A DNA stretch of 64,000 nt from a virus. Below, piece by piece: positions 30,054-64,000 of the stretch (its first letter is position 1; each line of letters begins with the position of its first letter). Location: the IMG/VR virus record IMGVR_UViG_3300045988_132810, positions 32,001 to 96,000 of that record. One strand, 5' to 3'. Both the position numbers and the translations under genes were made by a program. The notes beneath the pieces were generated by a model, which had not been told where the DNA came from, made no database searches, and worked only from the letters and a program-made list of their open reading frames with translations.

Positions 30054-33000
30054 TTATCTAACACGATTATAAAGCTTTTTATTGATATTTTTCATATAAT
30101 TGTCCATCTGGTCTTGCACCGCCTTGGTAATGTTCTGGATGGAACTATTATCTGCTCTGTCAATATGGACAACCTCTCCGACTTGGAGGTTCAACTCAAG
30201 ATTGTTGTTAATAACATGAGGCGCACTAACAACAGGTCTAGATTGCTCTAGAACACTAGATGGATCTAGTTTGCCCCATTCCATAAGTCTTTCTGTTAGG
30301 TCTGCAGGAATAATTCCTGTTCCTTTCTTAATATAAGAAAGCCTACCTGCACCGTCTGGAACAAGCTGCAACTCTTCACCAAGCTCGTCAAGGAATGCGA
30401 ACTGGTCTTTATCAATTGATTTAGCTCCACTACTGTAACCCTCTATGTCGCTCAGACGCACCCAGCCAGTGTAGCCACCATTTCTGCCAATGAGAACTTC
30501 CGAGTCGGTTGCCTGATAAACTGTAAATGTAGATCCCGGCACCCAAGACTGCATTCTTGTTCCGTTTCCACCATCTCTAGAGAAGTGAGTCGCTGAACTC
30601 TTAACAGTTACAGATGACCCCTTAGTTGGGGCTGCTGGAGTGGATGGCTCAGTAGCTGGTGATTGCTGCGGCGTCGAAGGAGTTGGCGGAGTATACTTCG
30701 CGCTCTCAGTCGAATTCTTCTTGCTATTTGTGGCCTTAATTATGCTATCTGCGGTCTTATCAGCCTCAACTTGTAAATCTACAAGCTCTTGTTTTAATGC
30801 GCGTAATTGCTCAGTAAATGCGCTCGCAGAAGTGTCTAATTGCTCCTGATAAGTACCAATGGCATCTACGCCTTCCAGCCAAGGCTTAGTTACAGAATCA
30901 GAAAGAGTGATTCCATACTTGTCGGCTATTTCAGATAGGTTTTGTGCTAATGAATCTGTATTCGCAGCGATAACAGCATAGCTATCTTGAATGACTTGGT
31001 TCTCATTCTTAAGCGATTCATCAAGCGCATCCATTTCGTCTTGCTTGTTGTCTTGATAATTCTCAAGAGACTTGTCAAGGGCTTCTTGCTGCTTTTCAAT
31101 ACTATGGTCATAATACAGGTCGTTTAACTCGTCTTGCGCTTGCTTCAGTTCGGCTTCTAATTTTTTCTTCTGCGCAATTGCGGAAGCTGAATTGTCGCCA
31201 GAAATTACTGCAAGCCTCTTCTGAATGTCTGCAATATTCTTCTGCTGCTCGGCAACTTGCTTCGCAAAGTCATTTGCATCTTTTTGGAGGCTAAGTTCCT
31301 CTTTCTTTTTATCTATAAGCTTCGAAAGAGCGTCTATCTCCGCCTGCATAGATGTTTTGACACTTTCTATACGAGTCTTATTCAGATCAATAATAGACTT
31401 CTTCGCGGATTCTTGCGCCTCAATTGCGTCCCATTGATTCTCTTTAAGCTCGGCAAGCTTTTCGTTATACTCATCTGTGCTATAAAGCCCAGCGGAATAA
31501 TCTTTCTCCAGACGTGCAATCGCTTCGCCGTATTGCTCAACTTTAAAGTTTGCAACTTCTAGCTGCTGTGCAAGTAGACCAAGAGCAGTCACGCCATCTT
31601 TAGTCCAATTGCCAAATTCGTCTACTACTTTTTCTTCGTCAGAAACCAAGTTATACAAATGAGAAAGCTCAGAATCAACATTATCAATTTTGCTAATTAA
31701 CTTGTCAAGATTATCCCAGTAAAGGTCATTAATACTATTCTGGAAGCCTTCGATATCTTTCTTACATGAAAGGATTGAGTCGTCAACGTCATAAATGGCG
31801 TTAACCATTTCGTACCAATCATCAGTTCCAACTCTAACATCTCCAGAAGCGACAGCTTGATCTAGGATACTTTGTAGTGAAGCACGCTTATTATTTAGGT
31901 CTTCAATTTGCTTCTGAGAGTCTTTCATTAATTCCTTATAGAAGTTTTCAGAAAGTCTTTCTCCCGCTTCGTCAAGAAGATCCATCTCGGCCTGAATGAG
32001 GTTTGAGTGCTGTTCGACTAAACCAACAATATTCTCAAAGTCATCCGCAATATCATTTAGCTGTTCAAGACGTTTAGCGGAAATTTCAGCAATAGATTCT
32101 AGATAGCTATTCTCTGCATCTTCTGCTTTTGTAGACCATGTACGATATTCTTCAATGGCATCAGCAATTTCGCCTTCGCTTTCCCCGATAAAGTCTTTAA
32201 TTGCGATAGCGCCGTTCTTTGCCATTTCTTGATACTCGGCGGGAACTTTAGACAGTAGCTCCGTTGCCTTCTGGTTGTAAAGCTCTGCTGCAGCAAAATA
32301 TGTAGATGCTTTCTGTTTTTCTGCTCCGACTAAGTCATCATATAAGCTGTTCTTATCTCCAATTTGAGAAGTATCGTCAAGGAAATTCTCAATTCTATTG
32401 GTCATATGAGTAATTGCCTTCTCGATTTCTTCAAGCTTATATTCAATAAAGTCAATGGTTTGCTCTGCATCATCGGCTGCGTCAGATACATCACTTGCCG
32501 CATCAGATAGGTCACTAGCAGCATCACTTAAGTCCCAACCCATTTGAGACCAGTCTTTGTCACTGCCATCTCCCCACGCAGCATTCGCTCCAGTGTCAGT
32601 TTTCTTTGTATAAGTACCATAATTCCAGTGAGCATTGCCTTTAGCAAACGACAAGCCGCCAGTGTATGTCCCACGAGACGTGTACCCATTCTTTAATAAC
32701 TCTTCTGTCTGCTTGTGGTTATAGATTATTGCACCCTTCGGCAAATCAAGCATTTCCGTGCCATGTTCTCCAACAGTATAATAAACGCCCTTGTTTGCGT
32801 CTACTACTAGTTCACGACCAAGCTCGCCTACAATGGCATTGTGCTCATTTGCTTTTAATCCGGGCTTCTTGCCTGAATGCGCATTGCCTTTTGCCAAAGC
32901 ATTTCCAAGCGCACTAGACGCACCGTCAGGATTATAGCCACTTCCGCTTTTTGCATCTTCACGACCTTGTGTAAATTTACTCTTCAGGTTGTTCCAAAAA

Positions 33001-36000
33001 TTTCTCGCTTGTGTACTAATCCAAGAAGAAACCGATTCCCAAAGACCATTAATGGCACTAGGAACAGTTTCTGTGAAGAATGTAGAAATGCCAGTTTTAA
33101 TATTTTCTAAAGTAGTAGGTACTGTTTCTGTAAGAAATGTCCCGACTCCTTCCCAAAATTCATTCCATTTTGTCGGAAGCGTTGCTGTAAAGAATTCTAA
33201 AATCTTTTCTCCCGCTGTGACCAACGCTGGGCCAATCACTTCATCAACATAAGTGCCGACACTCTCCCAGAAAGAATGCCATTTTTCAGGAACTGTCTCG
33301 GTAAAGAATCCATACACGCTATCCCACGCCGCGCTTAAGGCTGGCGCGATTGTGCCATCAATATATTGGCCAACGCTAGTCCAAAATTCACTCCATTTTG
33401 TAGGAATTGTTGTCGTGAAGAACTCAACAACTTTATCTTTCAAAGCAATAGCGTCTTCTTTTAAATTGTTTAATTCTTCGCCAACACCATCCCAAAATTC
33501 ATCCCATTTTTCTGGAATAGTTTCTGTAAAGAATGTAACTACCGCATCTTTAAGATCGCTTGCCCATTGTTTTACTTTGTCGAAATCTTCACTAACATTA
33601 TCCCAAAACTCTCCCCATTTCTCAGGGACAGTCTCTGTAAAGAATTCTTCCACTTTCGCAGATATATATCCAACTGCGTAAGGGATGTCGCCAAGGAATT
33701 CCCCAACACTTCCCCAAAACTCGTTCCATTTTTCTGGAATCGTTTCGGTAAAGAATGTATTAACGCCTTCTTCTACATTAGCAGCCCAATCTTTTACTCC
33801 GTCAAGACATTCGCCAACACCGTTCCAGAACTCATCCCATTTTTGAGGCAATGTGTCTGTGAAAAATGTATTTATGTCTTCCCATAGTCCTTGCGCCCAT
33901 TCTTCTGCACCAGATAATTTGTCTCCAATACCGCTCCACAAATTGTCCCATACAGTTGGCAATGTTTCTGTAAAGAAAGTAGATATGCCACTCCAAATAT
34001 TGTTGGCGAATTGCTGTACCTCAACAACCACCTCGTCCACTAATGCGTTCCAACCTGCAATTACTTGATCAGGGCTTTGTGCTTCAAATCCCGTAACGTT
34101 GGAAGTAGAAGTTGTGCTTGCACTTTTTTCAGTACTCGTCGAAGTTGTACCAGAGCTTGTTTTTGTTGTATCAGTTGTTTTAGTATCTTGCTTCTTGTTT
34201 TTGTCTGGAGATTGAATGGCATCCAAAATGTTGTCAAGGACTTCTTTGACCTGAGTTATTCCATCAGTTATTGGGTCAACTTCTTGATTAGTTAACACCT
34301 CAAGTTGTTGTTCGTCATTTTTTAAATCAACATATTCTTGAATCTTCTGTTGCTGATCTTCGTCTAATTCAAGCGTTGCCGGGATCTTCCAAACGCCATC
34401 TTTATCTTGCTCTAGCTTTGGAACTACCTCAGTAACTAGAGTTGCATTTTCTTCTTTCCACTGATCAATTTTAGATTGGACATCAGTCAATACAACCTGA
34501 AAATCCATTACGGTTGGCTGTTCTAGACCATATTTAATTTTTAAAGCTTCTGCTAACTGCTCTTTTGCTTTTTCGAGCTCATCCGTCTTTATTTGGATCT
34601 CTTCATCCGAAGCTCCAGCATCTTTTAACTCTTGTAATTCTCTTGTAAGTGTTGATACATTTTCTTTTGCAGTATCAACGGTATTGTTTGCATCGATCCA
34701 AGCTTTTGTATTGTCAACAATTGCCTGCTGCGCATTATTCAACGAATCTGTAGCGCCATCAATTTCTTGCTGAATCGCATTATATTCTTCTGCATTTTCG
34801 CCAAGTGGATCTTTACCAGCCTTGAAAAACTCTTCTTGCTTCGCAAGTGCCTTGTCCAAAGAGTCGGTAGTATCTCTAAGTTTTTTGTCAAGTTCTGTCA
34901 TAGTTAGGTCAGAAACGATATCTCCCCAACTTGCATCATATTTTGACAGCTCTGTCAACATTGCAATAGTTGCGGCCTTTGTTAATCCCATTGCATTTGC
35001 AAGGTCGTCAACGCTCTTTATACTACTATCAAGAGTAAATGTGCCGTCCGCATTTTCAATAAAAGCACTAGCTTCTTTCGCGTCGGCAATAAATGCTTCT
35101 ATGTTCTTTAAGCCTATTGAAAAATTTCCATCATCATCAATAGTGAAATAGTCTGCAAACTTTGAGTTTTCAAAATAATCATCAATGGCGTCAAGACGTT
35201 CTTCAAAAGTTTTACAGTTTGCAATGACGCTCGGAGGAACTAATGCCTCACATGCCGCCTTAAATGCTTCCGTCCCAACTTTGCCACTCAACAATCCGTC
35301 GCTAATGGTCTCAAGCATTTCAACCATTGAGTCGCCATACGCCATTTCTGAATCTCTGTTTTTGGCATCTTCAAATTCATCATATGCATTGGTAACATCT
35401 GATAATTTCAACTCTAAAATTGAATATTCTTTAACTGCATTCTTGAGTGCTTGTATCTGACTACGCAGCGCGCTAATATTATCATAAGTTGCTTTTGTAA
35501 CATATCCATACGCCTTGTAATCCGCATACATTGCCTTAACAGCCTGTTGTAGTTGTTTTACAACTTTTGTATACTGCGACTGACTTTGTGCTTTCGCCGC
35601 ACTTACTGTTGCCTTTTGTTCTTTTTTCTTCTGTGCAATTAATGCTCTTAATAGACGTGTATTCTTAACGACCTTGCCATTCGTAGTATCAATTGCGTCA
35701 CCGAAGCTCTCTTCGCCAACAGTTACATCTCCAAGATACTCTTGGAGTGCAGTATAATAATCGTCAGAAATCGCTTGCCCGTCAAATGTTATGTCATTAA
35801 CTGTCTGTAACACTGACGCATACGAATCATAAGCAGAAGTAAGGCTTGCTATGTCGCTAACAGCCACAGAAGTGGCTTCACTAGTCTGTTGCATAGCACC
35901 GCTAATGTTCAAGAAATATCTTGCAACATCTTCTGCACTAATTCCAAGAGAGTCTAATTGTACTTTAAACTGTGGATTTTCAGCAATTAAGCTCTCAACC

Positions 36001-37850
36001 TCTCCAGTGACTCCTTCAATAGCAGATTCGTAATCTCCGAATTTATCAACGTCAACATTGATCTCTCCAGATTCAATTTTCGCGTTAAATGCTTCTTGGA
36101 ATGCTTGTCCTGCCTCAGAACCACGCTCGCCGAATAAGCGGTCAAGAGCAGACTCTTTTGCTCCAGCAGAACCAAACATGATTTCTGCTCGATCATTGTA
36201 ATTTTGCATCGAACTAAGAAGACCATTTACTGCCTTTTGTGCCTCTGTTAAATTGTCACCATCAAACCATTCCAAGTCGCTGACGCCATATTCTTCTTCT
36301 TTGCCTTTCATAAACTCGTCCCAATTGGACTGTGCGTCGGCATAATCTTCTTGCGCAGACTCTAAATTCTTTTCTAGCTTTTGGAACTTTTTGCTATTGG
36401 TGTCCATACCAGAGTCTAAGACATCCTGTACTTCTGCTTCCGCTTTGTCTAGTTTATCTTTGGCGTTCTTTACTTTACCTAATTCGTCTTCGAAATTGTT
36501 TGTTAAATCAGCCTCGCCAGCCGCTCGCGGCTTAAAATCTTGATCTGTATCTAATGCGCCCTTTACAGCCTCTGCTTGCTTGTTTTTCGCACGCTCTTCT
36601 CTTGCTTCTTCTAACCGAATCTGACGTTCAAGCTCGGCATTTTGCTCTTTTAATTTGTCAAGCTCTTCTTGCTCTGTAAGAGTTAATGGACCTTTAGATT
36701 CGAGCTCTTCTATACGATTCTTTGTAGTTTCTAATTCGGAGTTGAGAGACTCTATATTCGAACGAATATTGTCTAGTTCCTCACTAGTGTCTTTAAGTTC
36801 TTCTACGTAATCTTTATGAGACTTAGTTAATGCACAAATAGTCACAGTCAACGCAGCAATTGCAGCAACGGCCAAAATCGCCCAGCCAACAGGATTTGTT
36901 ACGAGCCAAGCTGCCGCAGTCGCCACTGCCTCCCAGATGCTTGCGGCCAATGCTTTAAAAGACACTATCAGTCCAGTATTCGCAGTAGTTAGCCCCATGG
37001 CAGCAATAATTGCTTCAGCGTCCGCACCAACAATTCCTTGCGTTGCAAGTGCTTCTCTAATCTTCGCTGCAGTATTTAAGTTCGTTGCAACAGTTTCTTC
37101 TCCTGCTTTACCAGTTAGGATTGTCCTTATAGCGGCTTCTTTTGTTGCATCACCAATTTTAGTCGAATTTAAAATCGCTTCTTTTACTTTTGCTCCATTT
37201 AGCGCTTCTATCGCTGCAGTTTCTCCTGCGTATGTGGCTATGTTGCTCTTGATTGCATTAGTTAACTTTGACCATAGGTCTGGCAAGAAAAACTTGCCGA
37301 GTTGGATACCAGCAATTGTAATAAGTGCGCTTTGCAACACGCCAACTTTGTCTATGATATTTACTAATCCAGTGCCAACATCCACAAGGAATTTAACAGC
37401 ATCAGACCTTATAAAATTCATCCACATTGTTTGGACTGCATTTGTAAACTGATCAATCTTTCCTTGAATACTATCCAAGTATTTTTCATTTTCGGCCATT
37501 GCACTGCCAGCAGAATCTGCAGATGTTTGCATCGCATCTTCTACTAAGTCAAAATTCTTAATAACGGCGGATAAAACATTTGCTTGTCTTTTCCCGCCTA
37601 GCAATTCTAGTGCGGCTGCTCGATTTACGTCCGTCATGTCGTCCCATACTTGAGACATTTCACGTAAAATTTCTGTAGTGTTCTTGAATGTATTCTCATC
37701 GAGCATAATGTCAACTTTACCGCCTGTTAAAGCTAACAATTTTTTCTGCAGTTCTGAGACGCTATTGGCCATGCCATCAACGTCCTCACCTGCATCTTCT
37801 AATTCTACCTTGGCTCCGCGAATACGAAGCGATAAGGTTTTCATTGCTGT
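30054..37850 (-). CDS. tail tape-measure protein, exon 2
   Basis: Begins TAMKTLSLRIRGAKVE (second half of the TP901-type tape-measure core). Followed by hydrophobic helices, long coiled coils, a Trp-rich repeat array and the C-terminal GNAHSGKKPG...IVGELGRELVV motif. Confidence 0.9.
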   Translation of the reverse strand, partial: TAMKTLSLRIRGAKVELEDAGEDVDGMANSVSELQKKLLALTGGKVDIMLDENTFKNTTEILREMSQVWDDMTDVNRAAALELLGGKRQANVLSAVIKNFDLVEDAMQTSADSAGSAMAENEKYLDSIQGKIDQFTNAVQTMWMNFIRSDAVKFLVDVGTGLVNIIDKVGVLQSALITIAGIQLGKFFLPDLWSKLTNAIKSNIATYAGETAAIEALNGAKVKEAILNSTKIGDATKEAAIRTILTGKAGEETVATNLNTAAKIREALATQGIVGADAEAIIAAMGLTTANTGLIVSFKALAASIWEAVATAAAWLVTNPVGWAILAVAAIAALTVTICALTKSHKDYVEELKDTSEELDNIRSNIESLNSELETTKNRIEELESKGPLTLTEQEELDKLKEQNAELERQIRLEEAREERAKNKQAEAVKGALDTDQDFKPRAAGEADLTNNFEDELGKVKNAKDKLDKAEAEVQDVLDSGMDTNSKKFQKLEKNLESAQEDYADAQSNWDEFMKGKEEEYGVSDLEWFDGDNLTEAQKAVNGLLSSMQNYNDRAEIMFGSAGAKESALDRLFGERGSEAGQAFQEAFNAKIESGEINVDVDKFGDYESAIEGVTGEVESLIAENPQFKVQLDSLGISAEDVARYFLNISGAMQQTSEATSVAVSDIASLTSAYDSYASVLQTVNDITFDGQAISDDYYTALQEYLGDVTVGEESFGDAIDTTNGKVVKNTRLLRALIAQKKKEQKATVSAAKAQSQSQYTKVVKQLQQAVKAMYADYKAYGYVTKATYDNISALRSQIQALKNAVKEYSILELKLSDVTNAYDEFEDAKNRDSEMAYGDSMVEMLETISDGLLSGKVGTEAFKAACEALVPPSVIANCKTFEERLDAIDDYFENSKFADYFTIDDDGNFSIGLKNIEAFIADAKEASAFIENADGTFTLDSSIKSVDDLANAMGLTKAATIAMLTELSKYDASWGDIVSDLTMTELDKKLRDTTDSLDKALAKQEEFFKAGKDPLGENAEEYNAIQQEIDGATDSLNNAQQAIVDNTKAWIDANNTVDTAKENVSTLTRELQELKDAGASDEEIQIKTDELEKAKEQLAEALKIKYGLEQPTVMDFQVVLTDVQSKIDQWKEENATLVTEVVPKLEQDKDGVWKIPATLELDEDQQQKIQEYVDLKNDEQQLEVLTNQEVDPITDGITQVKEVLDNILDAIQSPDKNKKQDTKTTDTTKTSSGTTSTSTEKSASTTSTSNVTGFEAQSPDQVIAGWNALVDEVVVEVQQFANNIWSGISTFFTETLPTVWDNLWSGIGDKLSGAEEWAQGLWEDINTFFTDTLPQKWDEFWNGVGECLDGVKDWAANVEEGVNTFFTETIPEKWNEFWGSVGEFLGDIPYAVGYISAKVEEFFTETVPEKWGEFWDNVSEDFDKVKQWASDLKDAVVTFFTETIPEKWDEFWDGVGEELNNLKEDAIALKDKVVEFFTTTIPTKWSEFWTSVGQYIDGTIAPALSAAWDSVYGFFTETVPEKWHSFWESVGTYVDEVIGPALVTAGEKILEFFTATLPTKWNEFWEGVGTFLTETVPTTLENIKTGISTFFTETVPSAINGLWESVSSWISTQARNFWNNLKSKFTQGREDAKSGSGYNPDGASSALGNALAKGNAHSGKKPGLKANEHNAIVGELGRELVVDANKGVYYTVGEHGTEMLDLPKGAIIYNHKQTEELLKNGYTSRGTYTGGLSFAKGNAHWNYGTYTKKTDTGANAAWGDGSDKDWSQMGWDLSDAASDLSDAASDVSDAADDAEQTIDFIEYKLEEIEKAITHMTNRIENFLDDTSQIGDKNSLYDDLVGAEKQKASTYFAAAELYNQKATELLSKVPAEYQEMAKNGAIAIKDFIGESEGEIADAIEEYRTWSTKAEDAENSYLESIAEISAKRLEQLNDIADDFENIVGLVEQHSNLIQAEMDLLDEAGERLSENFYKELMKDSQKQIEDLNNKRASLQSILDQAVASGDVRVGTDDWYEMVNAIYDVDDSILSCKKDIEGFQNSINDLYWDNLDKLISKIDNVDSELSHLYNLVSDEEKVVDEFGNWTKDGVTALGLLAQQLEVANFKVEQYGEAIARLEKDYSAGLYSTDEYNEKLAELKENQWDAIEAQESAKKSIIDLNKTRIESVKTSMQAEIDALSKLIDKKKEELSLQKDANDFAKQVAEQQKNIADIQKRLAVISGDNSASAIAQKKKLEAELKQAQDELNDLYYDHSIEKQQEALDKSLENYQDNKQDEMDALDESLKNENQVIQDSYAVIAANTDSLAQNLSEIADKYGITLSDSVTKPWLEGVDAIGTYQEQLDTSASAFTEQLRALKQELVDLQVEADKTADSIIKATNSKKNSTESAKYTPPTPSTPQQSPATEPSTPAAPTKGSSVTVKSSATHFSRDGGNGTRMQSWVPGSTFTVYQATDSEVLIGRNGGYTGWVRLSDIEGYSSGAKSIDKDQFAFLDELGEELQLVPDGAGRLSYIKKGTGIIPADLTERLMEWGKLDPSSVLEQSRPVVSAPHVINNNLELNLQVGEVVHIDRADNSSIQNITKAVQDQMDNYMKNINKKLYNRVR
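33030..34010 (-). repeat. in-frame tandem repeat array in the tape-measure gene (about 10 x about 37 aa, FFTETxPxKWxEFWxxVG)
   Basis: Repeated peptide units are visible in the translation. They also generate a stack of spurious + strand ORFs. Confidence 0.8.
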
Positions 37851-38163
37851 CGATCTATTACTTTCCCACGAAAACCAAATGGTACTGACCGATTATGTAA
37901 TCGGCGGCAAGGTCTTTCGGCCTTGCTCTACGATTTTATTTTTAGATTATTGTCGTAGTCTAGACTGGATCTTCACCCTCATTCCCGTCATTATACGGAG
38001 TAGGGGAACAGCGGAACCTGTTATGTTACCATAAAAGGTCTTACAGTCGTTACGGATACTTTGCACACTGCAAAGTCTTTCCTCGGTCTTGACCATCTCT
38101 GGCTTTTAACCGATATAGCTGTTTTCTTTCAATATATTACTATATTGTTAGGCTATTATGTTA
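37851..38163 (-). ncRNA. putative ORF-less group I intron in the tape-measure gene (313 nt)
   Basis: Excision gives ...VVQNPESVG|TAMKTLSLRIRG in frame. The exon ends in U and the intron ends in G. 5-bp P1 UAGGU/GCCUA with U.G at the splice site. The 3' end AGTAATAGATCG|ACAGC nearly matches that of the CotH-gene intron. Confidence 0.8.
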
Positions 38164-41100
38164 ACCTACAGATTCTGGATTTTGCACAACGCTATTGGCG
38201 GCTGTAATTAACCCAATAGACTCATCAAGTGTATTGCCAGCCTCTGCCATAGCACTAGCAGAACGCAATAGCGCTTGTCCAATACCTGATGAACTGATTG
38301 CAAAGTGGTTTCCCACCTCGTTGAATTTATCTACGATTCCCATAGCATGAGACGCTTCAATACCAAATCCGTGCATTGTAGAAATGATACTGTCAGAAGC
38401 CTCACCAATATCGGCTAGGTCATCACCAACGTTATAATAAACGGAAGCGGCCTTTGCCAAGTCAGATGCTTGTTCAATGTTATATCCTAACCTTGCGAAA
38501 TCTGCTGTAGCATTAGTAAAATCTTTAACGGTAGAGCCGATCTGCCCAGCAGTTTTAGACGCATCTTGTAAGAATCTCTTATAACTTTCATCAGTTTCGT
38601 CAGTAACTTTTTTCAGTTCAGTTAACGCTGCGTCAATTTCTCTTACATATGTAATACCTTGCTTAATTTGAGCAACAGTTTTATACACCATATTTGCGCC
38701 AGTAAAGTATGTAAGAATTTCACCAGACTTTTTCTTAACATTGCTAAAGAAAGAGCCAAGCGTACTACTTGCTTTGCCCATATTCTTAGCGGAAGCATTA
38801 ATAGCATTTCCCGCTTGATTAAACGATGCAGTTAGTTTTTCTACTTCGCCATTGCCATTCTTTATTGTAAAAGTAACCTTGGAATAGTTGTCAGCGAACT
38901 GAATAGATTTTTTATCTAACCCATCAAAAGAATTAGCAAATGCTTCTAATTCACTTCTTCTGCTTGCTTCGTCGCCAATATCAAAGCCATCAGAGACTGC
39001 ACGAGTGATATTACCAACTTTGTTTTTCATCTCTTCGGACTTCTTAATGATATTTTCAATTGCTTTGCCATATTTATTAAATGACTCAACTGCACTATCA
39101 AACTCTGCGGCCTTTTGCTTACCCAAATCCGAAGTGATGTCTATGTTTGCAAGCTCTTTTTGAAGTGTAATTATTCTTTGATATGCTTGCTCGTATTGCT
39201 GTAATTGAGTAGTAACCCCGGAGGCATTGGCATAGCCTTTGCTATTAACGCTATTAATTAACCCAGTATGCTTTGTTTCGACTTGTCCGACAACATCTGC
39301 CCCATACAAAGTATTGTTTTGCTTTGCTGAGTCCTTCTTTACCTTTGCGTACTGTTCAAAATCGCTCATGAGCTGCTTTGTCGCAGCACTCAACCTTTGC
39401 ATGTCATCTTCTGACACTTTACCAAAGGCTTCTTCGGACTTTGTTAGATCTTGTATCTCCTTTGATAGAGTTTCATATCTACTCTTTAACTGGCCAAGAT
39501 CACTATCTTTATCTACGAAGACTTCCGTATCAATTTTCCTAAAAGCAGAAGATAGCTTTTGATTTGCATCTATTAATGTTTTATAATTGTCTAGTTCTTT
39601 ATAGCTGTCGTTAGAACTTTTAGAACTACTAGAATGAGAAGTTATCCCTTTTCTTGTGCCCTTGCTGGAATCAGCTTCATTTCCAAGTGATTCAGCAGTT
39701 TTATCCGCGCTATCTTTTACATTTTGGTTTGCATTAGCAAAATCATTTTTCGCTTGAGTGGCTGACGCGAAAGCCTCGCTCGCTTCTCTCGCCTTTTCTA
39801 TTTCTTTTTCTATAGCAACCGCAGAAGCTTCCGCACTTTCCTTAACTCGTGCATTAGCTTCAACAAACTGATTTTTTTGTTCCGTCGCCGCCGCAAATGA
39901 TTCCTGTACACCACTAACGCTGGCTACTTCGGGAGCAGTCGTTGCAGGATCTCCTGTATTTTGACCATTAGCAATCTCACCAGTTGCTGTCTTCGAAACC
40001 TTTGACGCATCGCTCTGATTTTGTTTTTCTTTTTCTTTTGTAATTTGCTGTTGCGTTTCCAATTGTTGCTTTGCTTCTTCATTTTGTTGTTTCTCTACTG
40101 CCAACTCTTGCTCTGCCGCATCGGTGCCTTTTTGCTTTGCTTCTGTCGCACTACCTAATTGTACTTTTGCTTCAGCAAGCTTGGTTTTTAATTCATCAAT
40201 TACAGAAGACAAATTTTCAATTTTTGCTCTATATTCATCTACGACATCATTTGAAGTCATATTATCGACTTCGCTCATCGGGACAGAATTATCTAGAGCA
40301 TTTTGGATGTCGTAATAACTATTCTTCCACGAATCTAAAGCACCTTCCATACGAAGGATTTCTTCTTCCAATTCTTGTACTTGTTTTTGTGCCGCGTCAA
40401 GCTCGGAAGCGTCAACAGGATTTGTCGGAATAGCATTTAATTTTTCTTTAAGAGCGGCAATTTCTTGCATAAGCTCTTTTTCTTTTTCAAGCTGCGCGGT
40501 TTGATTGTCCATTTGATTAGACTGAGTTGAAGGCTGCCCAGACTGAATCTGATTAAGCTTTTCTTGCGCGGTAGTCTCCTCGTTGATAGCCTCAGTAGTT
40601 TTTTGATGTGCTTCTGCTGCTTGCGCTTCGATTTCCTTAATTCTAGCTACGCTTTGATTCCAAGCATTAGTAGAGTCAATTTCTCCACTCTCGAACGAGC
40701 TAAAAATATCTTTAAACTTGTCCCAATCGGCGGTGTGCGATGGATTTAATGTTGCCAATAAACTTTTTAATTTTTCAATTGGTGCAACAGAATTTTCTCC
40801 ATTCTTTTGTATTTCGGCTAAATAAGATGACAACTCTGGTAGCTGTTCCATTGTATATGTCTTAACAGTCGAAGCTAACCCATTGTCTGTAAACGCCTTA
40901 TCTAGGGCTTGATTGACTTTTTCATTAAACGCAGCAATCAACTGTTCATATGAAATGCCCGCTTGCGCCGCTTTTTCTTCTGCTCCTTTTATTAATCCAA
41001 CTTCTCCGTCATTATATTCCATCAGAGGAAATTCTTTTGTAGCTGCTTTTAAATTTTGAGAGTAAGATTCTCCAATTTTGATGGCCATTTCTTTAGAAAT

Positions 41101-42840
41101 GCCAGTAAAATCAATTGTTTTAACAACGCCATCTGCAATGATACCATTAATTTTTGTGCCTTGGTCATAAAACAACTTGGTAAATGAATTAATATCCGAC
41201 GGCGTAAATGCACTCATTCCATCTGGGTGATTGTGCAAAGACATTACGATATTTTCTTTTAGATTGTTGACAAGTTGTGATACTATTGCGTCTGTATCTA
41301 CCTGAAAATCCTTCCCAGAAAAAGAACTTACCACTTTGTCCGCGCCAAAAAGCGTCATAGACTCTTTTGCGTCGCCGCTACCTTTTGAATAACCAACCTC
41401 TTGCCCCGACGCAACATTTAATAATTCTTGTAGCTCGCCAGTTACACCGCTAACTTCTTTTGCGCTTTTTTGTGCAGCCGTAGGAATTTCAACATTAAGT
41501 AGCTCACAGATTTTAGAAAGTGCTTCGGCTCCGGTAATGTCTCCAAAGTCTAAATCTGAAAAGATCTGTTCAATTGCAGTCCCTGCCTCTTTAGACGCCT
41601 GAGAAACTTCTTTAATTTCATCGACAAGTGCCATTAACTTCTCTTCGTTTTGGGCCCCTTCGTCTGTCCCTGACAATAACGAGACATATTCTTTAACTCT
41701 TTTATTTAACTCATCATATAAAGAAATCTTTTTTTCTTCCGAAGTTCCATTTTCTTTTTCTACAAAATCATCTGGATTTTCAATGTTTTTAAGGTTGTCT
41801 ATTTCTAAATTAATATCTGCAATTTTTTGCTTATACTCGCTCTTTATCTTTTCAAGCGTAGCATTCTGCTTTGCTCTAAACTCTTCTAAAAACTCTTCGG
41901 CCCTATCATATTCTCTAGAATTTGCAGCATATGCCGTAGCGTCATCGCTACCATGCTCGAACACATAATCCATTGTGCTCTTTAACTGGCTTGCTGCCTT
42001 TATTTTTCTTACAAAAGCTTCTTCTTTCCCTGACTTGCCAGTTCTCTCTAATTCCGCAAGTTCTTGCTCTGCTTTTTTAAAATCTTCAACAAGGCCAGCT
42101 AGAACAGTAGTATCATTTTTCTTTGTTGTTTTTACTCTTTTGTCTTTGCCATTAAAAATGTCTAATGCTTCTTGATATCTTGCCTTTTGTTTTTCCAGTT
42201 CATCAATTTGTCGTTGAACTTCTTCGGAAATTTTATTACCTGCATCTTTGATATCGCTAGACACTTCATCCCCAGCAGACTTGATATTATCTCCAACTTT
42301 AGATAAATCAATCTCGCCAAATGCGATATTTAATTTACCATTTAACTCGCTGGCATATTGGATTAATGCATTAAACTGTTCTTCAACACTTTTAGTGTTA
42401 AAAAGGTCTAAGTCAATTTGTTTATCAATGCCAACGTTCTTGAGGATTGTATTTAATTGCTCTGCGTAGCTCAGTAATTCTTTCGTCGCACCTTTGTCTT
42501 TTAAATTAACACCACTAAGCCCAGTAAAAACGTTTTTAGACAACTCTGAAATCTGAGACATCTGTTCAACCATTTTATCAAAAGACTTCATATATCCGCT
42601 ATTAAGCTTATCTCCAAGACCTGCTTTGACGGAATCCAAATCTTTCCTAAGTGCCTTAACAGCATCGTCCATAGCGACAAACTGCTTAATAAAATTATTA
42701 AGATTTCCACGCTTGCCAATGTTTGCTAAAACTCCATCCACCTGTTCAGCTTGAGTCTTACATGCAACAAGGCTACTCATAAGATCATCAATACTATATT
42801 TAATTTTCGAAGTATAACTCGCTTCTGCCAAAAGAATCAC
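38164..42840 (-). CDS. tail tape-measure protein, exon 1
   Basis: 1559 aa, mostly coiled coil. Ends with the first half of the tape-measure core (...FAISSSGIGQALLRSASAMAEAGNTLDESIGLITAANSVVQNPESVG). Has an embedded JAB/MPN-like motif HNHPDGMSAFTPSD. Confidence 0.85.
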
Positions 42841-44033: not shown

Positions 44034-44534
44034 TTAATCTTCGCCCCAAACTTCTTCGTTGGCGAAATTATAAATTTTATGCGCCGCAACTCCTATGCAA
44101 ATTGCTTCACATTCATCTTCTGATAGATCAAGACCAAAATTTTCTTTTACATAATCAATACTCTGTTGCTTAAGCTCTTGGCGTTTTACTTTCGCCCCCT
44201 GAGAATATCCTAATGCTTTGCGCCATTGGCTTGGCAACAAAATATGCACATTGACATTATGAGCTTCCGCATAACCAATTATCATACCAGCCAATCTTGC
44301 CAAAATTATCATAGTCGCTGGGTTCGATTGTTGTTGCACATTTTCTAGAACAAGTTTCTCTGGTTTATACTTTTTAATAACCTTCCAAAGTTCTTTCGCC
44401 ATTTCAAAAGATCTTTTATCTGTTTCTAATTTGCTCTTGTTCATATCAACAACGCCAGATTCTATATATTGACCGTTTTCAAATATGGCATAACCAGAAC
44501 GACGTGTGCTTTGATCAAAACTTATGACACGCAT
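44034..44534 (-). CDS. ruvC: RuvC-like Holliday junction resolvase
   Basis: RVISFDQSTRRSGYAIFE (first catalytic Asp), LVLENV (Glu) and SEDECEAICIG (Asp) fit the RuvC fold signature. Confidence 0.8.
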   Translation of the reverse strand: MRVISFDQSTRRSGYAIFENGQYIESGVVDMNKSKLETDKRSFEMAKELWKVIKKYKPEKLVLENVQQQSNPATMIILARLAGMIIGYAEAHNVNVHILLPSQWRKALGYSQGAKVKRQELKQQSIDYVKENFGLDLSEDECEAICIGVAAHKIYNFANEEVWGED

Positions 44535-44584
44535 AACAATTCCTCCTTTCCGAGAGATTCATATTTACACTAATTTTAAATATA

Positions 44585-44608
44585 AAAAGAAGAAACCATT
44601 TGGCTTCT
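44585..44608 (-). terminator. possible rho-independent terminator after the lysis genes
   Basis: On the - strand: AGAAGCC-AAAT-GGTTTCT hairpin followed by TCTTTTTATATTT. Confidence 0.45.
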
Positions 44609-44639
44609 CCTTTAAACTACGATATACAATTTTTTGTTA

Positions 44640-45587
44640 TTAACTGTATAGAGCATCTACTCTGTTTTGTACTATTTGATAGTCATATCCCGCTGCTTCA
44701 AGGCGTGCTTGACGTTCTAAACCATTTCCCCATTCGCCTTGATATACCTCCAATACAATTTCATCTAATGTTTTACCTGAAGCAACAACTGATTCCGTAT
44801 TTGGAACAAGAATCTTTTGTCCTATATAAATAACATTAGGATCAGAAATTCCATTGTAGGAAGCAAGTTGTTGATATGTAATGCCATATTTTGTGGCAAT
44901 GTCAGAAAGAGTGTCACCAGATTTTACAGTATAAACTGTTTCTGTTTGACTTTGCGAAAAAGTTAATCCATTTTTACCAGCTTCTCTAATCAATGCAGGA
45001 TAATCAAAATAAGAAATGTTCATATCAACGCACCCAGAAATACCATTGACAATTCCAGAACTAGAATACTGCCAAATTCCATAGTCCTTGTTATACTGAC
45101 ATTCAGAATTATATTGAGCAATCCATCTTGCCTTAGTGTCATACCAAGAATCAGTCAGATATGCCTCATTCCAATATAAATTGGCATAAATACCAACCCA
45201 ATAACCAGCGTCTTCTAAAATGCCAACAAATTTTTTAGACATTTGAAGAATTAAATCTTGACTACATTTCCCAGTAGTATTAACGTCTTCTAAATCATAA
45301 TAAACGGGATATTCAAGTTTACGACCTTTTATCAATCTAAGTACATGTGTTGCTTCCGAAGCAGCTTTTTCTACTGTATCTGCATAACTGTACAAATACA
45401 CACCATAAGGTATACCAACTCTTTCGCATTCTAAAGCATTCCTTTTAAACCAAATATCATCTTGTTCTTCTAAGTTCATTCCATAGCCACAGCGAAGAAT
45501 TGCAAAATCAATTTCATCCTTTTTTACTGCATCCCAATCAATTTGTCCTTGCCATTCGCTCACATCAACACCTTTTAATTTTTTCAT
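44640..45587 (-). CDS. endolysin: GH25 muramidase with LysM and Cpl-7-like wall-binding modules
   Basis: GH25 start [31 protein letters not shown]. Lys[31 protein letters not shown]-terminal [31 protein letters not shown] (Cpl-7-like). Confidence 0.9.
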
Positions 45588-45605
45588 ATTATCCCTCCTT
45601 TTTGT

Positions 45606-45642
45606 CCATAAAAAATGAGGGAGTGTATTGCTACACTCCCTC
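45606..45642 (-). terminator. rho-independent terminator
   Basis: Perfect 11-bp stem GAGGGAGTGTA/TACACTCCCTC with a 4-nt loop, followed on the - strand by ATTTTTT. Confidence 0.65.
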
Positions 45643-45682
45643 GCCCATATAACTACTTCATATAGGCTATTTGTTTATAAAA

Positions 45683-46609
45683 TTAATTCTCTTTATTGTC
45701 CGTACTATGATTAGAATCAAACATTCTCTGACAGACAACCAACATGCGCAGCATATCATATGATATATCTAGTTTGCCATTACCAGTGCCAGCAATTGCA
45801 CCAGTGTCGATTAAATGCTGCACGGTGTCACGCGCCCAAGATGGGATATCTTCGATTGTCTCATAATGCTTATTGCATGCATCAAACATATGCTTCATGA
45901 CATACAGCATACGTATCATATCAGCAGACAAATCAAGATTGCCTCCACCAGTGCCAGAAATTAAACCTTCATCAATCATATCACTAATAGTTTCTCTTGC
46001 CCAGCTAGGGATATCATCAATAGTATTGTATCTCATTACGTCTTCCTCCTCTTCATCATTTCCATTATTTTTGTTCATGGCCTCATATACATCCTGACGG
46101 AACCCGTCCATAGTGTAACCCATGCCATATGTATTCCACAGAAGTTCTGGATCCGCATGGTTGCTGGCCACACCTCTACGATGACCTTCTGCATGACCAA
46201 TAATCACACCGTCTTCCAGTGGATTAAGCCCATAAGTGTTGCAAAGCTGTGCGAATAATTCCACGGCTGTGCGATATGTCCCAGCAATCTGTTCAGCAGC
46301 TTCCGCATAACTCATTCTAGAGCTAGGTTCCGTCATTTCGATGCCGATATGGGTATTATTTGCAGCGCCACCGCAGTGCCATGCTCTCATCCACCAAGGC
46401 AATGTCTGATATACAGAGCCATCTGCCTGTATAAATGCGTGTACGCAAACTGATTGACCACCCGGCTGATACTGGTTGAAGTTGCGAGCAAACACCGCAG
46501 CACTAGGCTGTGGGCATCCAACGCTATGCAACATCAAACCACTTGGAGTAAGTGTCGAACCAATCTTATAACATTTATTTTGTGTCGCAAACGCTTCAAT
46601 AATTTCCAT
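45683..46609 (-). CDS. endolysin: N-acetylmuramoyl-L-alanine amidase (amidase_2/PGRP type) with two SLH-like repeats
   Basis: HSVGCPQ...VHAFIQ...RAWHCGGAANNTHIGIEM amidase_2 pattern. Two C-terminal repeats of about 45 aa (DIPSWARETISDMIDEGLISGTGGGNLDLSADMIRML and DIPSWARDTVQHLIDTGAIAGTGNGKLDISYDMLRML). Confidence 0.85.
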   Translation of the reverse strand: MEIIEAFATQNKCYKIGSTLTPSGLMLHSVGCPQPSAAVFARNFNQYQPGGQSVCVHAFIQADGSVYQTLPWWMRAWHCGGAANNTHIGIEMTEPSSRMSYAEAAEQIAGTYRTAVELFAQLCNTYGLNPLEDGVIIGHAEGHRRGVASNHADPELLWNTYGMGYTMDGFRQDVYEAMNKNNGNDEEEEDVMRYNTIDDIPSWARETISDMIDEGLISGTGGGNLDLSADMIRMLYVMKHMFDACNKHYETIEDIPSWARDTVQHLIDTGAIAGTGNGKLDISYDMLRMLVVCQRMFDSNHSTDNKEN

Positions 46610-57640: not shown

Positions 57641-60600
57641 TTAAATAGAAATACATGGACAAATACCATGAGCTCTGTTAGATGGCATATAGCTACTCAT
57701 ATCACCCTGAATGCCAACCGCTCTAAAGTAAGAATTGTACGCCACTTCTGGTGAACGTAGATAATATATGCTCGCAGTATCCCCAATAGACTTAACTCTA
57801 TCTGCAGATGAACCAAAGAATTCAATTGCTTTACCTTCGGAGCTATATGGCGCTTCGGATGTGTTAAACATTTCCACATACGACGGTAGATATACATAGT
57901 CTTTTGAATAAACAATATCAGATGCCATATTACCAGCGGTTGCAGGAATCTGCACTTGCTTAATAATTGATTTCCACTCTGTTGGGAAAGCCGCATAAAC
58001 TCTACTATTACAGAACGCTCTCATTTTAGAGTCATTCCATCCGCCAAGGTTGGTGTTCGTAGAATTCATATTGTGAGTGAGAGATAGCAAATTCGCCGGA
58101 ATGAACGAAGCTCCAGTAATTTTACTAGAATCTTGCGCACATCTATATCTCTTATCACCATAATATTCATAGCGCCAAGTTTCATGCGGCCATGCAGCAA
58201 GCTGTCTAGCCGCAGTGTCTCCAATATCATCAAGCCATACTTTGGCCCAGTGAATTGTGCCCTTACCTAGCGTTACGCTATCAATTGTTCCATTTGACAG
58301 GAACTTAAATCCACCAAGCATAATTGTCGCCTCAGTATTAGTTGTACGATTGCGCACAAGCTCTGTATAAGCCATTTCGTCAGCATAAACACCAGTTGTA
58401 GAAGCTCCAGAGTTAAACGAGTAGATATAAAGTTTACTTTCTCCCTTGCGGTGACGAAGCACAACGATATCTCTTTGGCCTCCTTTGCCTACTACTTTAC
58501 TAGTATTTCCCCACTGGATTTCTGGATTTGTACCATTATACTTTAGTCTAAATCCTTCAGAGCCATCATATTCAAAGCAAGACAATAGCGTAGCATCAGC
58601 GATATTGTCGCCAAACTCAAAATCTATAGCCATTGTAAATGAACCAGAATCTGCGCCAAATAGCTTAACGCCAGAATCTACTACTTTTGAGGAAGTGCCA
58701 TCAAAAGTAATTTCATCTCCAAGCATATGTTCTTCAACATTTGAGAACGAGAAATCCTGCCCAACACGGACGTCAAAATAGTCTTTCTGCTCGAAATAAT
58801 CATTTGCTCTCCCAGCAGTTGTTACGGCATAAATCTGTACTGGAGTCATATCTTTCAAGTCAGTTCCAGATGCTGGGAGCCCATTTTGTGTCTCCCACTT
58901 AGCATAGACGTCAGTATCTCCAGTGATATAGCCTGTGCTCTTATCCCAGCCAGTGAATAGATTATAAATATAAGAATCCTCATTATCGCTCATAGTTGGG
59001 TTGTCGCCTTCATATTCCGCAACAGCACCATATTCTACGCCAGTTTTAGTCGCAAGAACAACGCCTGCTTGCTGGAACCAACGCACAGTATATGTTCTTA
59101 CTGACTCGCTATATTTTGCTGTCACAGTTACAGGAGCAGTAACATTCACATCAATGCCATCCCAGCCAGAGAAGGTATAATTGTACTGTGCGGTACTTGG
59201 AATTGTCGGAGTGTCAATTTCACCACTTGCGACAGGATCAGTAATCTTGCCGCCTTGGTCAACATACTGAACATAATCATTGCCACTCTTGTCTTTAATA
59301 GCAGTACCATCGGAATTCATAAACGTCACTTTATACTGAGTAATAATACCATTATAAGTGACAGCTAAATCAGGCCATGCTGCCGCATAAGCATCGAGTT
59401 CTCTCTGCCTTGCTTGGCCAGCAATATGAACCTTACCAGCAAGTAAATTGTTATTCATCTTCAAAATAGCATTTAACAATTCAGTGCTTGTCACAGTCCA
59501 GTCAATGCCAGTTAAACGAAGTGTCTGCAACGTGTCAATTGCATCCTCAACAATTGGATAAGCATCAATTACAGAGTTCTCAATAGTTAACGATTCAAGA
59601 TTGTCATATGTCGCCTGTAAATCGGTTAAGTAATTTAGATTCTTAAAGCTTAAGCTATTGATTGTATTTGGTAAGTGAGCAAGTGCAATCTTACCATTTG
59701 CCGCGAATAGCACACCAGTTACAGATGTCCCCTCTGCATAAAGCTTCTCTAAGTTGCCACAGCTTGACAGATTGATCGATCCAGTCAATTTAGGGCAATT
59801 ACGAATGTCAAGTTCTTCAAGTAACGCATTGTTGCCAAGGTTTAGATTGGTTAAGAATGCATTAGAATAACCAGAAGTTTTATTGCCAATTACAAGCGTC
59901 TTAAGCTTTGAAGCCTTACTAAAATCATTATCGTGAATATAGCAAGCAGAAAGATCATTCAATGCCTGAATGCGAGAAGCACAATAAATTAGTACTGCCG
60001 TATCATCCATCTTGGTAAATGGACATTGAATTTCATAAGATTGTCCTGCCTTTGCACGAATCTGCTGTGCACTTGGAGAGTTGCCAAATAGCACAGACAG
60101 ATACATATCTGAATAAGGCACAATGTTTAGAGTGTAATTAGGTGCAACAACTACACCAGAAGGAGTATTGCATCTAAACATAATTTGATCTGCCTTGACA
60201 GTTGTAGACAGATATTTCGTTCCCATATAAGCCGCTTGGTCACGTTCAAATTGTCTACGCTGATATTTCTTACGACCATTCATCATAGACTCTAAGAAAC
60301 GAGGCGTTGGCTCTGGAGTTGCACCAGCATTGAGGCCACCACCTTGATATGTCCTGTAATACTTACGCTCAATATCAAGTCTCCAAAGCTCTTCTGGGAA
60401 TTGTGCTTGCCAATTGTCAAATTCATTAATTAGAGATGTTGCACTAAAGCAACCTTCTCCTTCAAGAGTTTGATACATTACTGCAAGCTCATCGTGGAAT
60501 AAATCACGTATCCTACACCAAAATACATTGTCTGCTGCATTAAATATATAACCCGAAGATTTATCGCCTTCGGTGCGATAGTCAGTGTCTTCCTTGCCAT

Positions 60601-60643
60601 ATGTCATGGTAAGCTCGCCACTGTTGTTAATTCCAAGGGCTGT
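57641..60643 (-). CDS. giant CotH-domain / LRR / B-repeat / LamG-like protein, exon 2
   Basis: Begins TALGINNSGELTMTYGKEDTD, completing the CotH WDYD..G motif. Followed by leucine-rich repeats (LEELDIRNCPKLTGSINLSSCGNLEKLYAEGTSVT...), B-type repeats (YKVTFMNSDG..., YTFSGWDG...) and a LamG-like segment. Confidence 0.85.
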   Translation of the reverse strand, partial: TALGINNSGELTMTYGKEDTDYRTEGDKSSGYIFNAADNVFWCRIRDLFHDELAVMYQTLEGEGCFSATSLINEFDNWQAQFPEELWRLDIERKYYRTYQGGGLNAGATPEPTPRFLESMMNGRKKYQRRQFERDQAAYMGTKYLSTTVKADQIMFRCNTPSGVVVAPNYTLNIVPYSDMYLSVLFGNSPSAQQIRAKAGQSYEIQCPFTKMDDTAVLIYCASRIQALNDLSACYIHDNDFSKASKLKTLVIGNKTSGYSNAFLTNLNLGNNALLEELDIRNCPKLTGSINLSSCGNLEKLYAEGTSVTGVLFAANGKIALAHLPNTINSLSFKNLNYLTDLQATYDNLESLTIENSVIDAYPIVEDAIDTLQTLRLTGIDWTVTSTELLNAILKMNNNLLAGKVHIAGQARQRELDAYAAAWPDLAVTYNGIITQYKVTFMNSDGTAIKDKSGNDYVQYVDQGGKITDPVASGEIDTPTIPSTAQYNYTFSGWDGIDVNVTAPVTVTAKYSESVRTYTVRWFQQAGVVLATKTGVEYGAVAEYEGDNPTMSDNEDSYIYNLFTGWDKSTGYITGDTDVYAKWETQNGLPASGTDLKDMTPVQIYAVTTAGRANDYFEQKDYFDVRVGQDFSFSNVEEHMLGDEITFDGTSSKVVDSGVKLFGADSGSFTMAIDFEFGDNIADATLLSCFEYDGSEGFRLKYNGTNPEIQWGNTSKVVGKGGQRDIVVLRHRKGESKLYIYSFNSGASTTGVYADEMAYTELVRNRTTNTEATIMLGGFKFLSNGTIDSVTLGKGTIHWAKVWLDDIGDTAARQLAAWPHETWRYEYYGDKRYRCAQDSSKITGASFIPANLLSLTHNMNSTNTNLGGWNDSKMRAFCNSRVYAAFPTEWKSIIKQVQIPATAGNMASDIVYSKDYVYLPSYVEMFNTSEAPYSSEGKAIEFFGSSADRVKSIGDTASIYYLRSPEVAYNSYFRAVGIQGDMSSYMPSNRAHGICPCISI

Positions 60644-60916
60644 CGATCTGTTACTATATAGGCTTGGCCCTATATTATGACTTACATTTCTGTAAGCGGA
60701 GCAGGTTCTTCTTTAAGCGGTCTGATTACCGTTGACCCACTCTCTGCAATTTCATTATTAGATTATAGTTGCAGTCCAGACTGTTGCATACTTCATAACT
60801 CGCGTCACAAAGCCCTTTGTACTCAGTCGTTGCAGGCGGAAAATTTCCTTCCTGAGCGTTGCCAATCTCTTGGTTTTCGCCATTAATCAACAAAGGTTTT
60901 ACAACGACAAAATTTT
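60644..60916 (-). ncRNA. putative ORF-less group I intron in the CotH-like gene (273 nt)
   Basis: Excision gives FELWDYDND|TALGINNSG in frame. The exon ends in U and the intron ends in G. 6-bp P1 AACGAU/GUCGUU with U.G at the splice site and an 8-nt loop. It shares a hairpin and its 3' end with the tape-measure intron. Confidence 0.8.
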
Positions 60917-63900: not shown

Positions 63901-64000
63901 CAGATGCCTTAAGTGTAGAAACCTTGCTGTCAATTTGAGACTTTGTATAATTGTCTCCCCCGATAATGCAGAACTCATCATTAATATAGCGATAATGCAC
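60917..64000 (-). CDS. giant CotH-domain protein, exon 1 (5' end outside the window)
   Basis: Open to the window edge. N-terminal coiled coil, Ig-like and LamG-like regions, then the CotH-type core ending ...KNSFYHYAKCVDGKYRFELWDYDND (compare B. subtilis CotH HNYALYRS..FEVIPWDYDATWG). Confidence 0.8.

Follow-up and report, generated by a model that had tools for sequence, protein, structure and literature searches.

A small group I intron very probably interrupts the tape-measure gene of a large uncultured phage

Phage tape-measure genes are known hosts of group I introns. In Bacillus cereus-group prophages (lambdaBa01-like), Tourasse & Kolsto (2008, PMC2504315) described the group I introns TMP-IVS1, IVS2 and IVS3a/b in this gene. 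Barth et al. (2023, PMC10448857), who call the gene for the tape-measure protein (TMP) 'frequently interrupted', demonstrated by RNA sequencing (RNA-seq) and reverse transcription PCR (RT-PCR) that its transcript in Vibrio phage ICP1 is made up of four exons plus three introns, and introns in capsid and tail genes were reported for cluster J mycobacteriophages (PMC3706429). Here we analyze a 64,000 nt stretch of viral DNA (the window; positions 32,001 to 96,000 of the IMG/VR record IMGVR_UViG_3300045988_132810), in which 313 nt on the minus strand (37851..38163) separate two long open reading frames (ORFs). These 313 nt very probably represent an ORF-less, subgroup IA-like group I intron that is spliced out from between the Gly and Thr codons of ...NPESVG^TAMKTL... 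(the caret marks the junction) in a TP901-type tape-measure gene. An earlier note on this DNA had proposed a group I-type intron in the conserved core of the gene, which is borne out below by intron-less alleles, a covarying fold and a family with endonuclease-bearing members. The note also implied that a tape-measure intron would be novel, which was wrong: as such introns were published in 2008 and found spliced in ICP1 in 2023, the locus is a new example and not a new phenomenon.

Judged by their published description, the B. cereus-group introns are similar in many respects. There, too, the host is a tape-measure gene offering several alternative sites, related introns adapt their P1 pairing to different sites while different introns share one site, and copies of subgroup IA type, ORF-less or with decayed homing endonuclease genes (HEGs), are present in some phages and absent from related ones. 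The hosts differ, as here they are large (~100–160 kb) uncultured phages. The tape-measure core in the window is most like those of Brevibacillus and Enterocloster phages, and a tblastn search of plasmids did not find the published tape-measure intron of B. weihenstephanensis pBWB404. The ICP1 gene, likewise compared by description, also contains several introns, some empty and some with HNH genes, with varying HEG content at conserved splice junctions. Its host is Gram-negative and its splicing was shown by RNA-seq and RT-PCR, whereas the present intron is known from DNA alone. Multiple group I introns also occur in a single gene of structural or unknown function, orf142, of Staphylococcus phage Twort. 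By description, this gene and the cluster J genes resemble the present locus in carrying small ORF-less group I introns in late or structural genes, several per gene, but the genes and hosts are others.

The split gene consists of the following parts:

38164..42840, minus strand: tape-measure 5' exon, 1,559 codons, last codon GGU (Gly)
38164-38168, minus strand: last 5 nt of the 5' exon, UAGGU, exon strand of P1
37851..38163, minus strand: predicted group I intron, 313 nt, no ORF, starting with an in-frame UAA and with its terminal G at 37851
30054..37850, minus strand: tape-measure 3' exon, 2,598 codons plus stop, starting ACA GCA AUG (T A M)

ORF 38161-42840 (-) terminates ...ITAANSVVQNPESVG and then meets TAA. 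Going upstream from ORF 30054-37844 (-), two more codons are open in its frame, up to 37850, and there it reads TAMKTLSLRIRGAKVE. The gap between the ORFs (37851-38163, -) is exactly 313 nt long and has stops in all three frames. These sequence statements of the earlier note all hold, as does its reading of one continuous TP901-type core after joining. Exon 1 alone matches Pfam PF10145 (PhageMin_Tail) at profile positions 5–132 of 201 only (51.9 bits), whereas the joined TP901-type product of 4,157 aa matches positions 4–200 as a single stretch (81.3 bits) and TIGR01760 (tape_meas_TP901) at positions 6–295 of 349 (103 bits). As both profiles continue across the junction, the two ORFs are halves of one domain; no other Pfam domain was found in either tape-measure half. 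By tblastn, the tape-measure region was found in 145 phage records, and in 134 of them a single place accounts for at least 80% of the query. All 40 of the 40 matches listed are a single unbroken piece, the closest being Brevibacillus phage Sundance (40% identity) and Enterocloster phages (34%). Downstream of the tape-measure gene, genes matching Dit, minor tail and tail-protein PHROGs form the expected siphovirus tail module.

The borders of the insert were fixed by comparing alleles. Scanning IMG/VR with the junction protein gave 34 loci, eight of which (L001-L008, 85–94% amino acid identity) are uninterrupted and read ...GTAGGT^ACTGCC..., that is NPESVG^TAMKTL. In five further loci (L014, L019, L021, L022, L024), which come from independent IMG/VR contigs and differ in their flanks, the same 313 nt are inserted at the same nucleotide; four of these inserts are identical to that of the window and one is at 99.7%. 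Only the cut given above yields the GGT^AC(T/A) of all intron-less alleles, and moving the borders by one base in either direction does not reproduce their sequence, so that the exon must end in U and the insert in G. The splice-site features named in the earlier note, namely an exon ending in GGU, an insert ending in AGAUCG and a pairing of GCCUA (intron positions 11–15) with exon UAGGU that places a U.G at the junction, are thereby confirmed. Between the window and the intron-less alleles, 45 synonymous and 8 non-synonymous substitutions were counted in the spliced frame over the 108 codons before the intron, and 65 and 16 over the 170 codons after it, and hence both flanks are under purifying selection in this frame. 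Around the intron, from -200 to +600, the carriers match the window at ~100% identity, and elsewhere they vary; the intron-less L001 is 80–84% identical beside the site and 94–100% further out. Such mosaic flanks may be the trace of co-conversion during homing or of recombination at homing sites.

From the 313 nt RNA a full group I core can be folded, including the P3-P7-P9 elements that the earlier note had asked for and a P3/P7 pseudoknot, and this fold is backed by covariation. The structural model was first built by eye from three introns, A, B and C, where C is the 313 nt intron and A and B are sister introns inserted nearby in related phages. With intron position n corresponding to window coordinate 38164 - n, its predicted elements are:

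38149..38153, minus strand: internal guide sequence GCCUA, intron 11–15, pairing with exon UAGGU (P1), G11.U(-1) wobble at the 5' splice site
38130..38147, minus strand: P2 hairpin, intron 17–34, CAAUAUA-GUAA-UAUAUUG with GNRA-type loop
38118..38122, minus strand: P3 5' strand, intron 42–46, ACAGC, pairing with 38008-38012
38083..38113, minus strand: P4-J4/5-P5-L5(GAGA)-P5'-J5/4-P4', intron 51–81, the most conserved block of the family, CGGNNAAANNCCAGAGAUGGNNNNNNCCG
38054..38082, minus strand: P6/P6a hairpin, intron 82–110
38044..38053, minus strand: J6/7 and P7 5' strand, intron 111–120, GUAACGACUG, C115 bulged
38015..38040, minus strand: P7.1-like extended hairpin with GUAA loop, intron 124–149, between P7 and P3', where subgroup IA has the extra helices P7.1/P7.2
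38008..38012, minus strand: P3 3' strand, intron 152–156, GCUGU, forming the P3/P7 pseudoknot with P7
37976..38006, minus strand: P8, intron 158–188, longer than in most family members, 70% of cells paired (MAFFT alignment)
37962..37975, minus strand: J8/7 (UGAAGAUC) and P7 3' strand (CAGUCU), intron 189–202
37928..37958, minus strand: P9, intron 206–236, with conserved 19 nt A-rich loop CAAUAAUCUAAAAAUAAAA
37888..37925, minus strand: P9.1 (GAAA loop, intron 239–256) and P9.2 (intron 259–276)
37851..37887, minus strand: 3' terminal segment, intron 277–313, ending AGUAAUAGAUCG; family motif AGUAA(C/U)AGAUCG

Within this model, P4 is formed by intron positions 51–56 with 76–81, P5 by 61–64 with 69–72 around the GAGA loop, and P7 by A114 and G116-G120 with C197-U202. 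G204-A205 with U311-C312 would provide a candidate P9.0. In the place of P2, most family members that could be examined have hairpins of other sequence with GNRA-type (mostly GYRA) loops, and the extended P7.1-like hairpin is found in most members and absent in L052 and L111. The P6 loop holds an endonuclease ORF or its remnant in introns A and B. The single-sequence minimum free energy fold of the insert has a z-score of -4.5 and shows P7 without P3, because P3 and P7 cross in the pseudoknot. Pairing of the L9 loop (AAUCUA) with the 3' end (UAGAU here) was also considered and dropped, as it shows no covariation across ten family members.

To assess covariation, 17 compact family members with identifiable ends were cut out and 14 of them aligned with MAFFT (alignment A1). 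Unaided, RNAalifold recovered P3, P4, P5, P6, part of P7.1, P9 and P9.2 from this alignment, with compensatory changes at 24 of 33 pairs. The full model including the pseudoknot has 87.3% of cells paired, compared to 32–39% when the partners are slid by 1–3 columns, and at 44 of its 57 pairs both partners have changed; none of 500 shuffles reached the observed values. The model was derived partly from sequences of A1 and is therefore favoured over the slid controls, a bias from which the unaided RNAalifold result is free. P3 is 87% paired with compensatory changes at all five pairs, and P9 is 100% paired with five of six pairs compensatory. P7 is likewise 100% paired, with compensatory changes at four of six pairs, a bulged C or A at position 115, a covarying A/G114-U/C202 pair, and G116-C201 and A117-U200 invariant in 14 of 14 sequences. 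G116-C201 is the candidate guanosine-binding pair, which in the Tetrahymena intron is G264-C311. The U at -1, the terminal G and the U.G guide pairing were checked independently against intron-less alleles for the 313 nt intron, introns A and B, and a second intron in the window described below. All curated family members end in G; the curation assumed a G, and only these four are independent in this respect.

Taken together, sequence, structure and comparative genomics support the group I interpretation well, and splicing would be expected to proceed as follows. The tape-measure gene would be transcribed as one late mRNA, in which the intron would fold into its P3-P9 catalytic core and P1 (UAGGU/GCCUA) would present the U.G wobble. 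Exogenous guanosine bound at G116-C201 of P7 would attack after U(-1). The terminal G313 would then take the place of the guanosine, and the freed 3'-OH of the exon would attack after G313. GGU would thus be joined to ACA, creating a single frame of 4,157 codons with the junction ...CCAGAAUCUGUAGGU^ACAGCAAUGAAAACC..., and on unspliced RNA translation would terminate at UAA, the first intron codon.

Several points weigh against this interpretation. Catalysis and splicing in vivo are steps that we infer, if with high confidence, from DNA. No P10 pairing was found in the 313 nt intron, where L1 offers ..AAUA against the 3' exon ACAG, and the near-invariant C of the 3' motif AGUAAC is replaced by U. 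P10 is dispensable in many group I introns, and two relatives at the same site do have it as read from their sequences (UGU/ACA in L037, UUGU/ACAG in L077). The search with the Rfam model RF00028 that the earlier note had suggested was negative: the whole window contains no match at the gathering threshold, and the 601 nt around the intron contain none at E <= 10. Nor were the sister introns matched. In a control on the td-nrdB region of phage T4, RF00028 scored td with 40.3 bits and nrdB with 35.7 bits at a cut-off of 50 bits; as these textbook introns fall below the cut-off, RF00028 performs poorly on phage IA introns, yet td and nrdB are at least seen by it and the 313 nt intron is not seen at all.

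A tentative link to the T4 introns was found from the family itself. With a hidden Markov model (HMM) of A1, the best nhmmer match in T4 was the J6/7-P7 ... J8/7-P7' region of the td intron (E 0.043). A covariance model of the 3' half of the family (R1; 120 positions, 23 pairs) scored the 313 nt intron with 102 bits and the second window site with 61 bits, and its best match in 44 kb of T4 was again the td intron, in an alignment that runs from end to end, keeps P7, P8 and P9 in register and scores 17.2 bits. This match is weak (E 0.48, on a rough calibration), which counts as a further point against, yet correctly placed, and it supports a td-like (subgroup IA-like) architecture without proving membership of that subgroup. 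The two match in the J6/7-P7 (CCUAACGACUAU vs CCGUAACGACUG) and J8/7-P7' segments (GGAGAUAUAGUCUG vs UGAAGAUCCAGUCU), in the order P7-(extra helix)-P3'-P8-P7'-P9 and in having an ORF in the P6 loop (here in the sister introns), and the intron ends compare as ...AACAUAAUG vs ...AAUAGAUCG. They differ in that td has two short helices (P7.1, P7.2) in place of the one long hairpin with GUAA loop found in this family, in the L9 loop, which is a conserved 19 nt A-rich one here, and in the host genes, which serve nucleotide metabolism in the case of td and nrdB and tail structure here.

Of the alternatives, the one that survives best is a decayed intron that no longer splices, in which case the tape-measure protein would be lost (defective phage) or made as two separately translated polypeptides ('genes in pieces'). 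The missing endonuclease ORF, the lack of an evident P10, the substitution in the conserved 3' motif and the absence of an Rfam match would all fit, and phage Aeh1, as cited in PMC10448857, has an nrd gene that is split and yet functional. We nevertheless regard decay as unlikely. Core helices and invariant positions are all intact, the insert is 99.7–100% identical in six phage genomes with differing exons, and in every one of the five other carriers, each exon is an open frame of more than 1,100 codons within the stretch examined. Flank substitutions are mostly synonymous on both sides, and the cut falls in the middle of the Pfam and TIGRFAM domain. Separate translation is further opposed by the first AUG of exon 2 (37844), which, as read from the sequence, has no Shine-Dalgarno-like sequence 5–12 nt upstream. 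No terminator was found in or near the insert, and promoter-like sites there are at chance level. In addition, four relatives (L019, L021, L022, L024) have a 108-codon exon between intron A and the 313 nt intron, which could not be expressed alone and is sensible only if both introns are removed.

The precise presence or absence among genomes and the highly structured RNA (z = -4.5) would also be compatible with another kind of insertion. Candidates are an intron of group II or a different type, a miniature transposable element, and a 'hop' element that is bypassed in translation, as in T4 gene 60. Taken individually, these fare poorly and their joint probability is very small. The insert borders show neither a target-site duplication nor terminal inverted repeats; for a group II intron, 313 nt are far too short, and a 5' GUGYG and a domain V are missing. 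Bypass needs matching take-off and landing codons, and the known gap in T4 gene 60 spans only 50 nt. Here the take-off codon would be GGU, but at the 3' border ACA has no GGU in front of it. The covariation, moreover, fits group I topology specifically. An assembly or sequencing artefact, e.g. a chimeric contig join, would be conceivable as the window is probably metagenomic, but is close to negligible, since five IMG/VR contigs that are independent and differ in their flanks have this insert at this very position, and since it belongs to a family with dozens to hundreds of copies.

Returning to the group I intron, its sequence places it in a large mobile family. The P4-P5 block, searched as CGGNNAAANNCCAGAGATGGNNNNNNCCG, occurs in 78 IMG/VR stretches and 25 GTDB genome stretches, the latter mostly metagenome-assembled genomes (MAGs) of gut Clostridia and Bacilli; for 19 fixed bases, we estimate roughly one match to be expected by chance. 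Diverged members sit at the same tape-measure codon boundary, namely PESVG^TTFKTLSARLRG in L037, PEAVG^TAMKTVSARIRG in L077 and PNSVG^SALRTISLRIRG in L070, which marks the conserved motif as a recurrent target. When 50,697 phage records were searched by blastn, once with the region as query and once with just the intron, no homologous intron was found, only short core matches. One of these, a 47 nt match (85%) to the P4-P5 block in Microcystis phage MaeS (MT362618.1:37483-37529), lies where no feature is annotated and may indicate an unannotated family intron in a cyanophage. Tandem family introns within a few kb were seen in two GTDB MAGs of Lachnospiraceae / Lachnoclostridium, with two in L134:5986-6549 and up to four HMM matches in L135:4019-7988, which suggests that the prophage regions of gut Clostridia contain further genes with many such insertions.

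Relatives of the window carry further inserts in the same stretch of the tape-measure gene, amounting to up to three introns within ~330 nt of coding sequence with mosaic flanks. Intron A (1,177–1,189 nt, with a 305-codon ORF in P6) lies 324 nt upstream of the 313 nt intron site at ...FARL^GYNIE... (~window 38487/38488) and was found in ten loci (L009, L011, L012, L015, L019, L021, L022, L024, L027, L029); the window itself is without it. Intron B (475 nt, with an apparent decayed ORF remnant in P6) lies at ...KFNEVG^NNFAIS... (~window 38304) in L011, L012, L013, L015 and L029, and its site is also used in other phages by the diverged family members L095 and L082. In both cases the exon before the insert ends in U, the last base of the insert is G, and the guide pairing includes a U.G (GGCU/GGCC for A, GGGU/GCCC for B). 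A third insert, D (1,739 nt, at ...VNRA^AALEL... in L010:3750-5495), contains an endonuclease ORF of 377 codons along with a guide-like GCCC, and is probably one more endonuclease-bearing intron. As its borders can be shifted by two bases and its 5' exon can end in C, A or G but not in U, it was excluded from the family analysis; if it is a group I intron, its splice-site pair would have to be C-G instead of U.G. The ORFs of introns A and D match the PHROGs phrog_559, phrog_9084 and phrog_7140 with E-values down to 1e-50, which are annotated as HNH endonuclease, homing endonuclease and intron-encoded nuclease.

On the coding strand of the 313 nt intron, with its stops in all frames, no intron-encoded endonuclease is present. 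The only ORF overlapping it is an antisense one of 118 aa (37678..38034) that extends into exon 2, and Pfam returned nothing for this ORF or for those of introns A and D. Having no ORF, the 313 nt copy was presumably spread by recombination or by an endonuclease acting in trans. A more specific scenario is conceivable, if rather doubtful: the intron and its ~100 relatives could form a distinct, uncatalogued IA-like lineage specialised on tail-structure genes of large gut-Firmicutes phages, homing repeatedly at ...Q(N/D)PxSVG^T..., with ORF-less copies relying on 'collaborative homing' via the endonuclease of the intron 324 nt away. The marks of such a lineage would be the long single P7.1 hairpin with GUAA loop, the 19 nt A-rich L9, the 3' motif AGUAACAGAAUG and the lack of an RF00028 match. 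The clustering of introns fits the published picture in which homing elements mark genetic-exchange boundaries between phages, and opens no new question.

A second family member appears to split a CotH-domain structural gene elsewhere in the window:

60644..60916, minus strand: predicted group I intron, the second member of the family in the window, 273 nt without an ORF, splitting the CotH-domain structural gene
beyond 64000 to 60917, minus strand: CotH-domain gene exon 1
60643 to 57641, minus strand: CotH-domain gene exon 2

Both the family HMM and R1 match at 60738-60839 (-). The ORF running from beyond 64000 to 60899 ends ...RFELWDYDND^KILSL followed by a stop, and the next ORF spans 57641-60607. 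The intron starts AAAAUUUUGUCGUUG and ends AGUAACAGAUCG, and its guide GUCGUU pairs with exon AACGAU via a U.G. At least 27 related contigs are without the insert and read ...GATAACGAT^ACAGGA..., that is DYDND^TGLG; joining the gene in the window gives ...ELWDYDND^TALGINN..., and the joined protein matches Pfam CotH over positions 133–321 of 322, across the junction. A family intron occupies the same CotH site in L097, and a longer version (~1.1 kb) seemingly does so in L170 and L174. On these comparisons, the second intron has as much support as the 313 nt intron.

The practical consequence concerns annotation. Gene callers would report two tape-measure ORFs (1,559 and 2,596 aa) instead of one protein of 4,157 aa, so that any inference of tail length from tape-measure length would be wrong, and the same mis-annotation applies to the CotH-domain gene (57641-64000). 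With dozens to hundreds of copies in public viral genomes and MAGs but no RF00028 match, introns in structural genes of gut phages are probably under-counted. The locus is, furthermore, a well-populated case in which related and unrelated introns have repeatedly hit a single conserved site of an essential structural gene. Its remaining interest lies in a large RF00028-invisible intron family in phage structural genes, in the way this family returns to one tape-measure motif, and in the mis-annotation that results from it.

At 4,157 aa, the joined tape-measure protein is unusually long. By the rule of thumb of ~0.15 nm tail length per residue, a tail of roughly 600 nm would be implied if the whole protein measures length. 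Directly upstream of the putative chaperone ORFs of the tape-measure gene, a RuvC-like Holliday-junction resolvase gene and two endolysin/amidase genes were found at 44037-46609 (-), an order that is unusual for a tail module.

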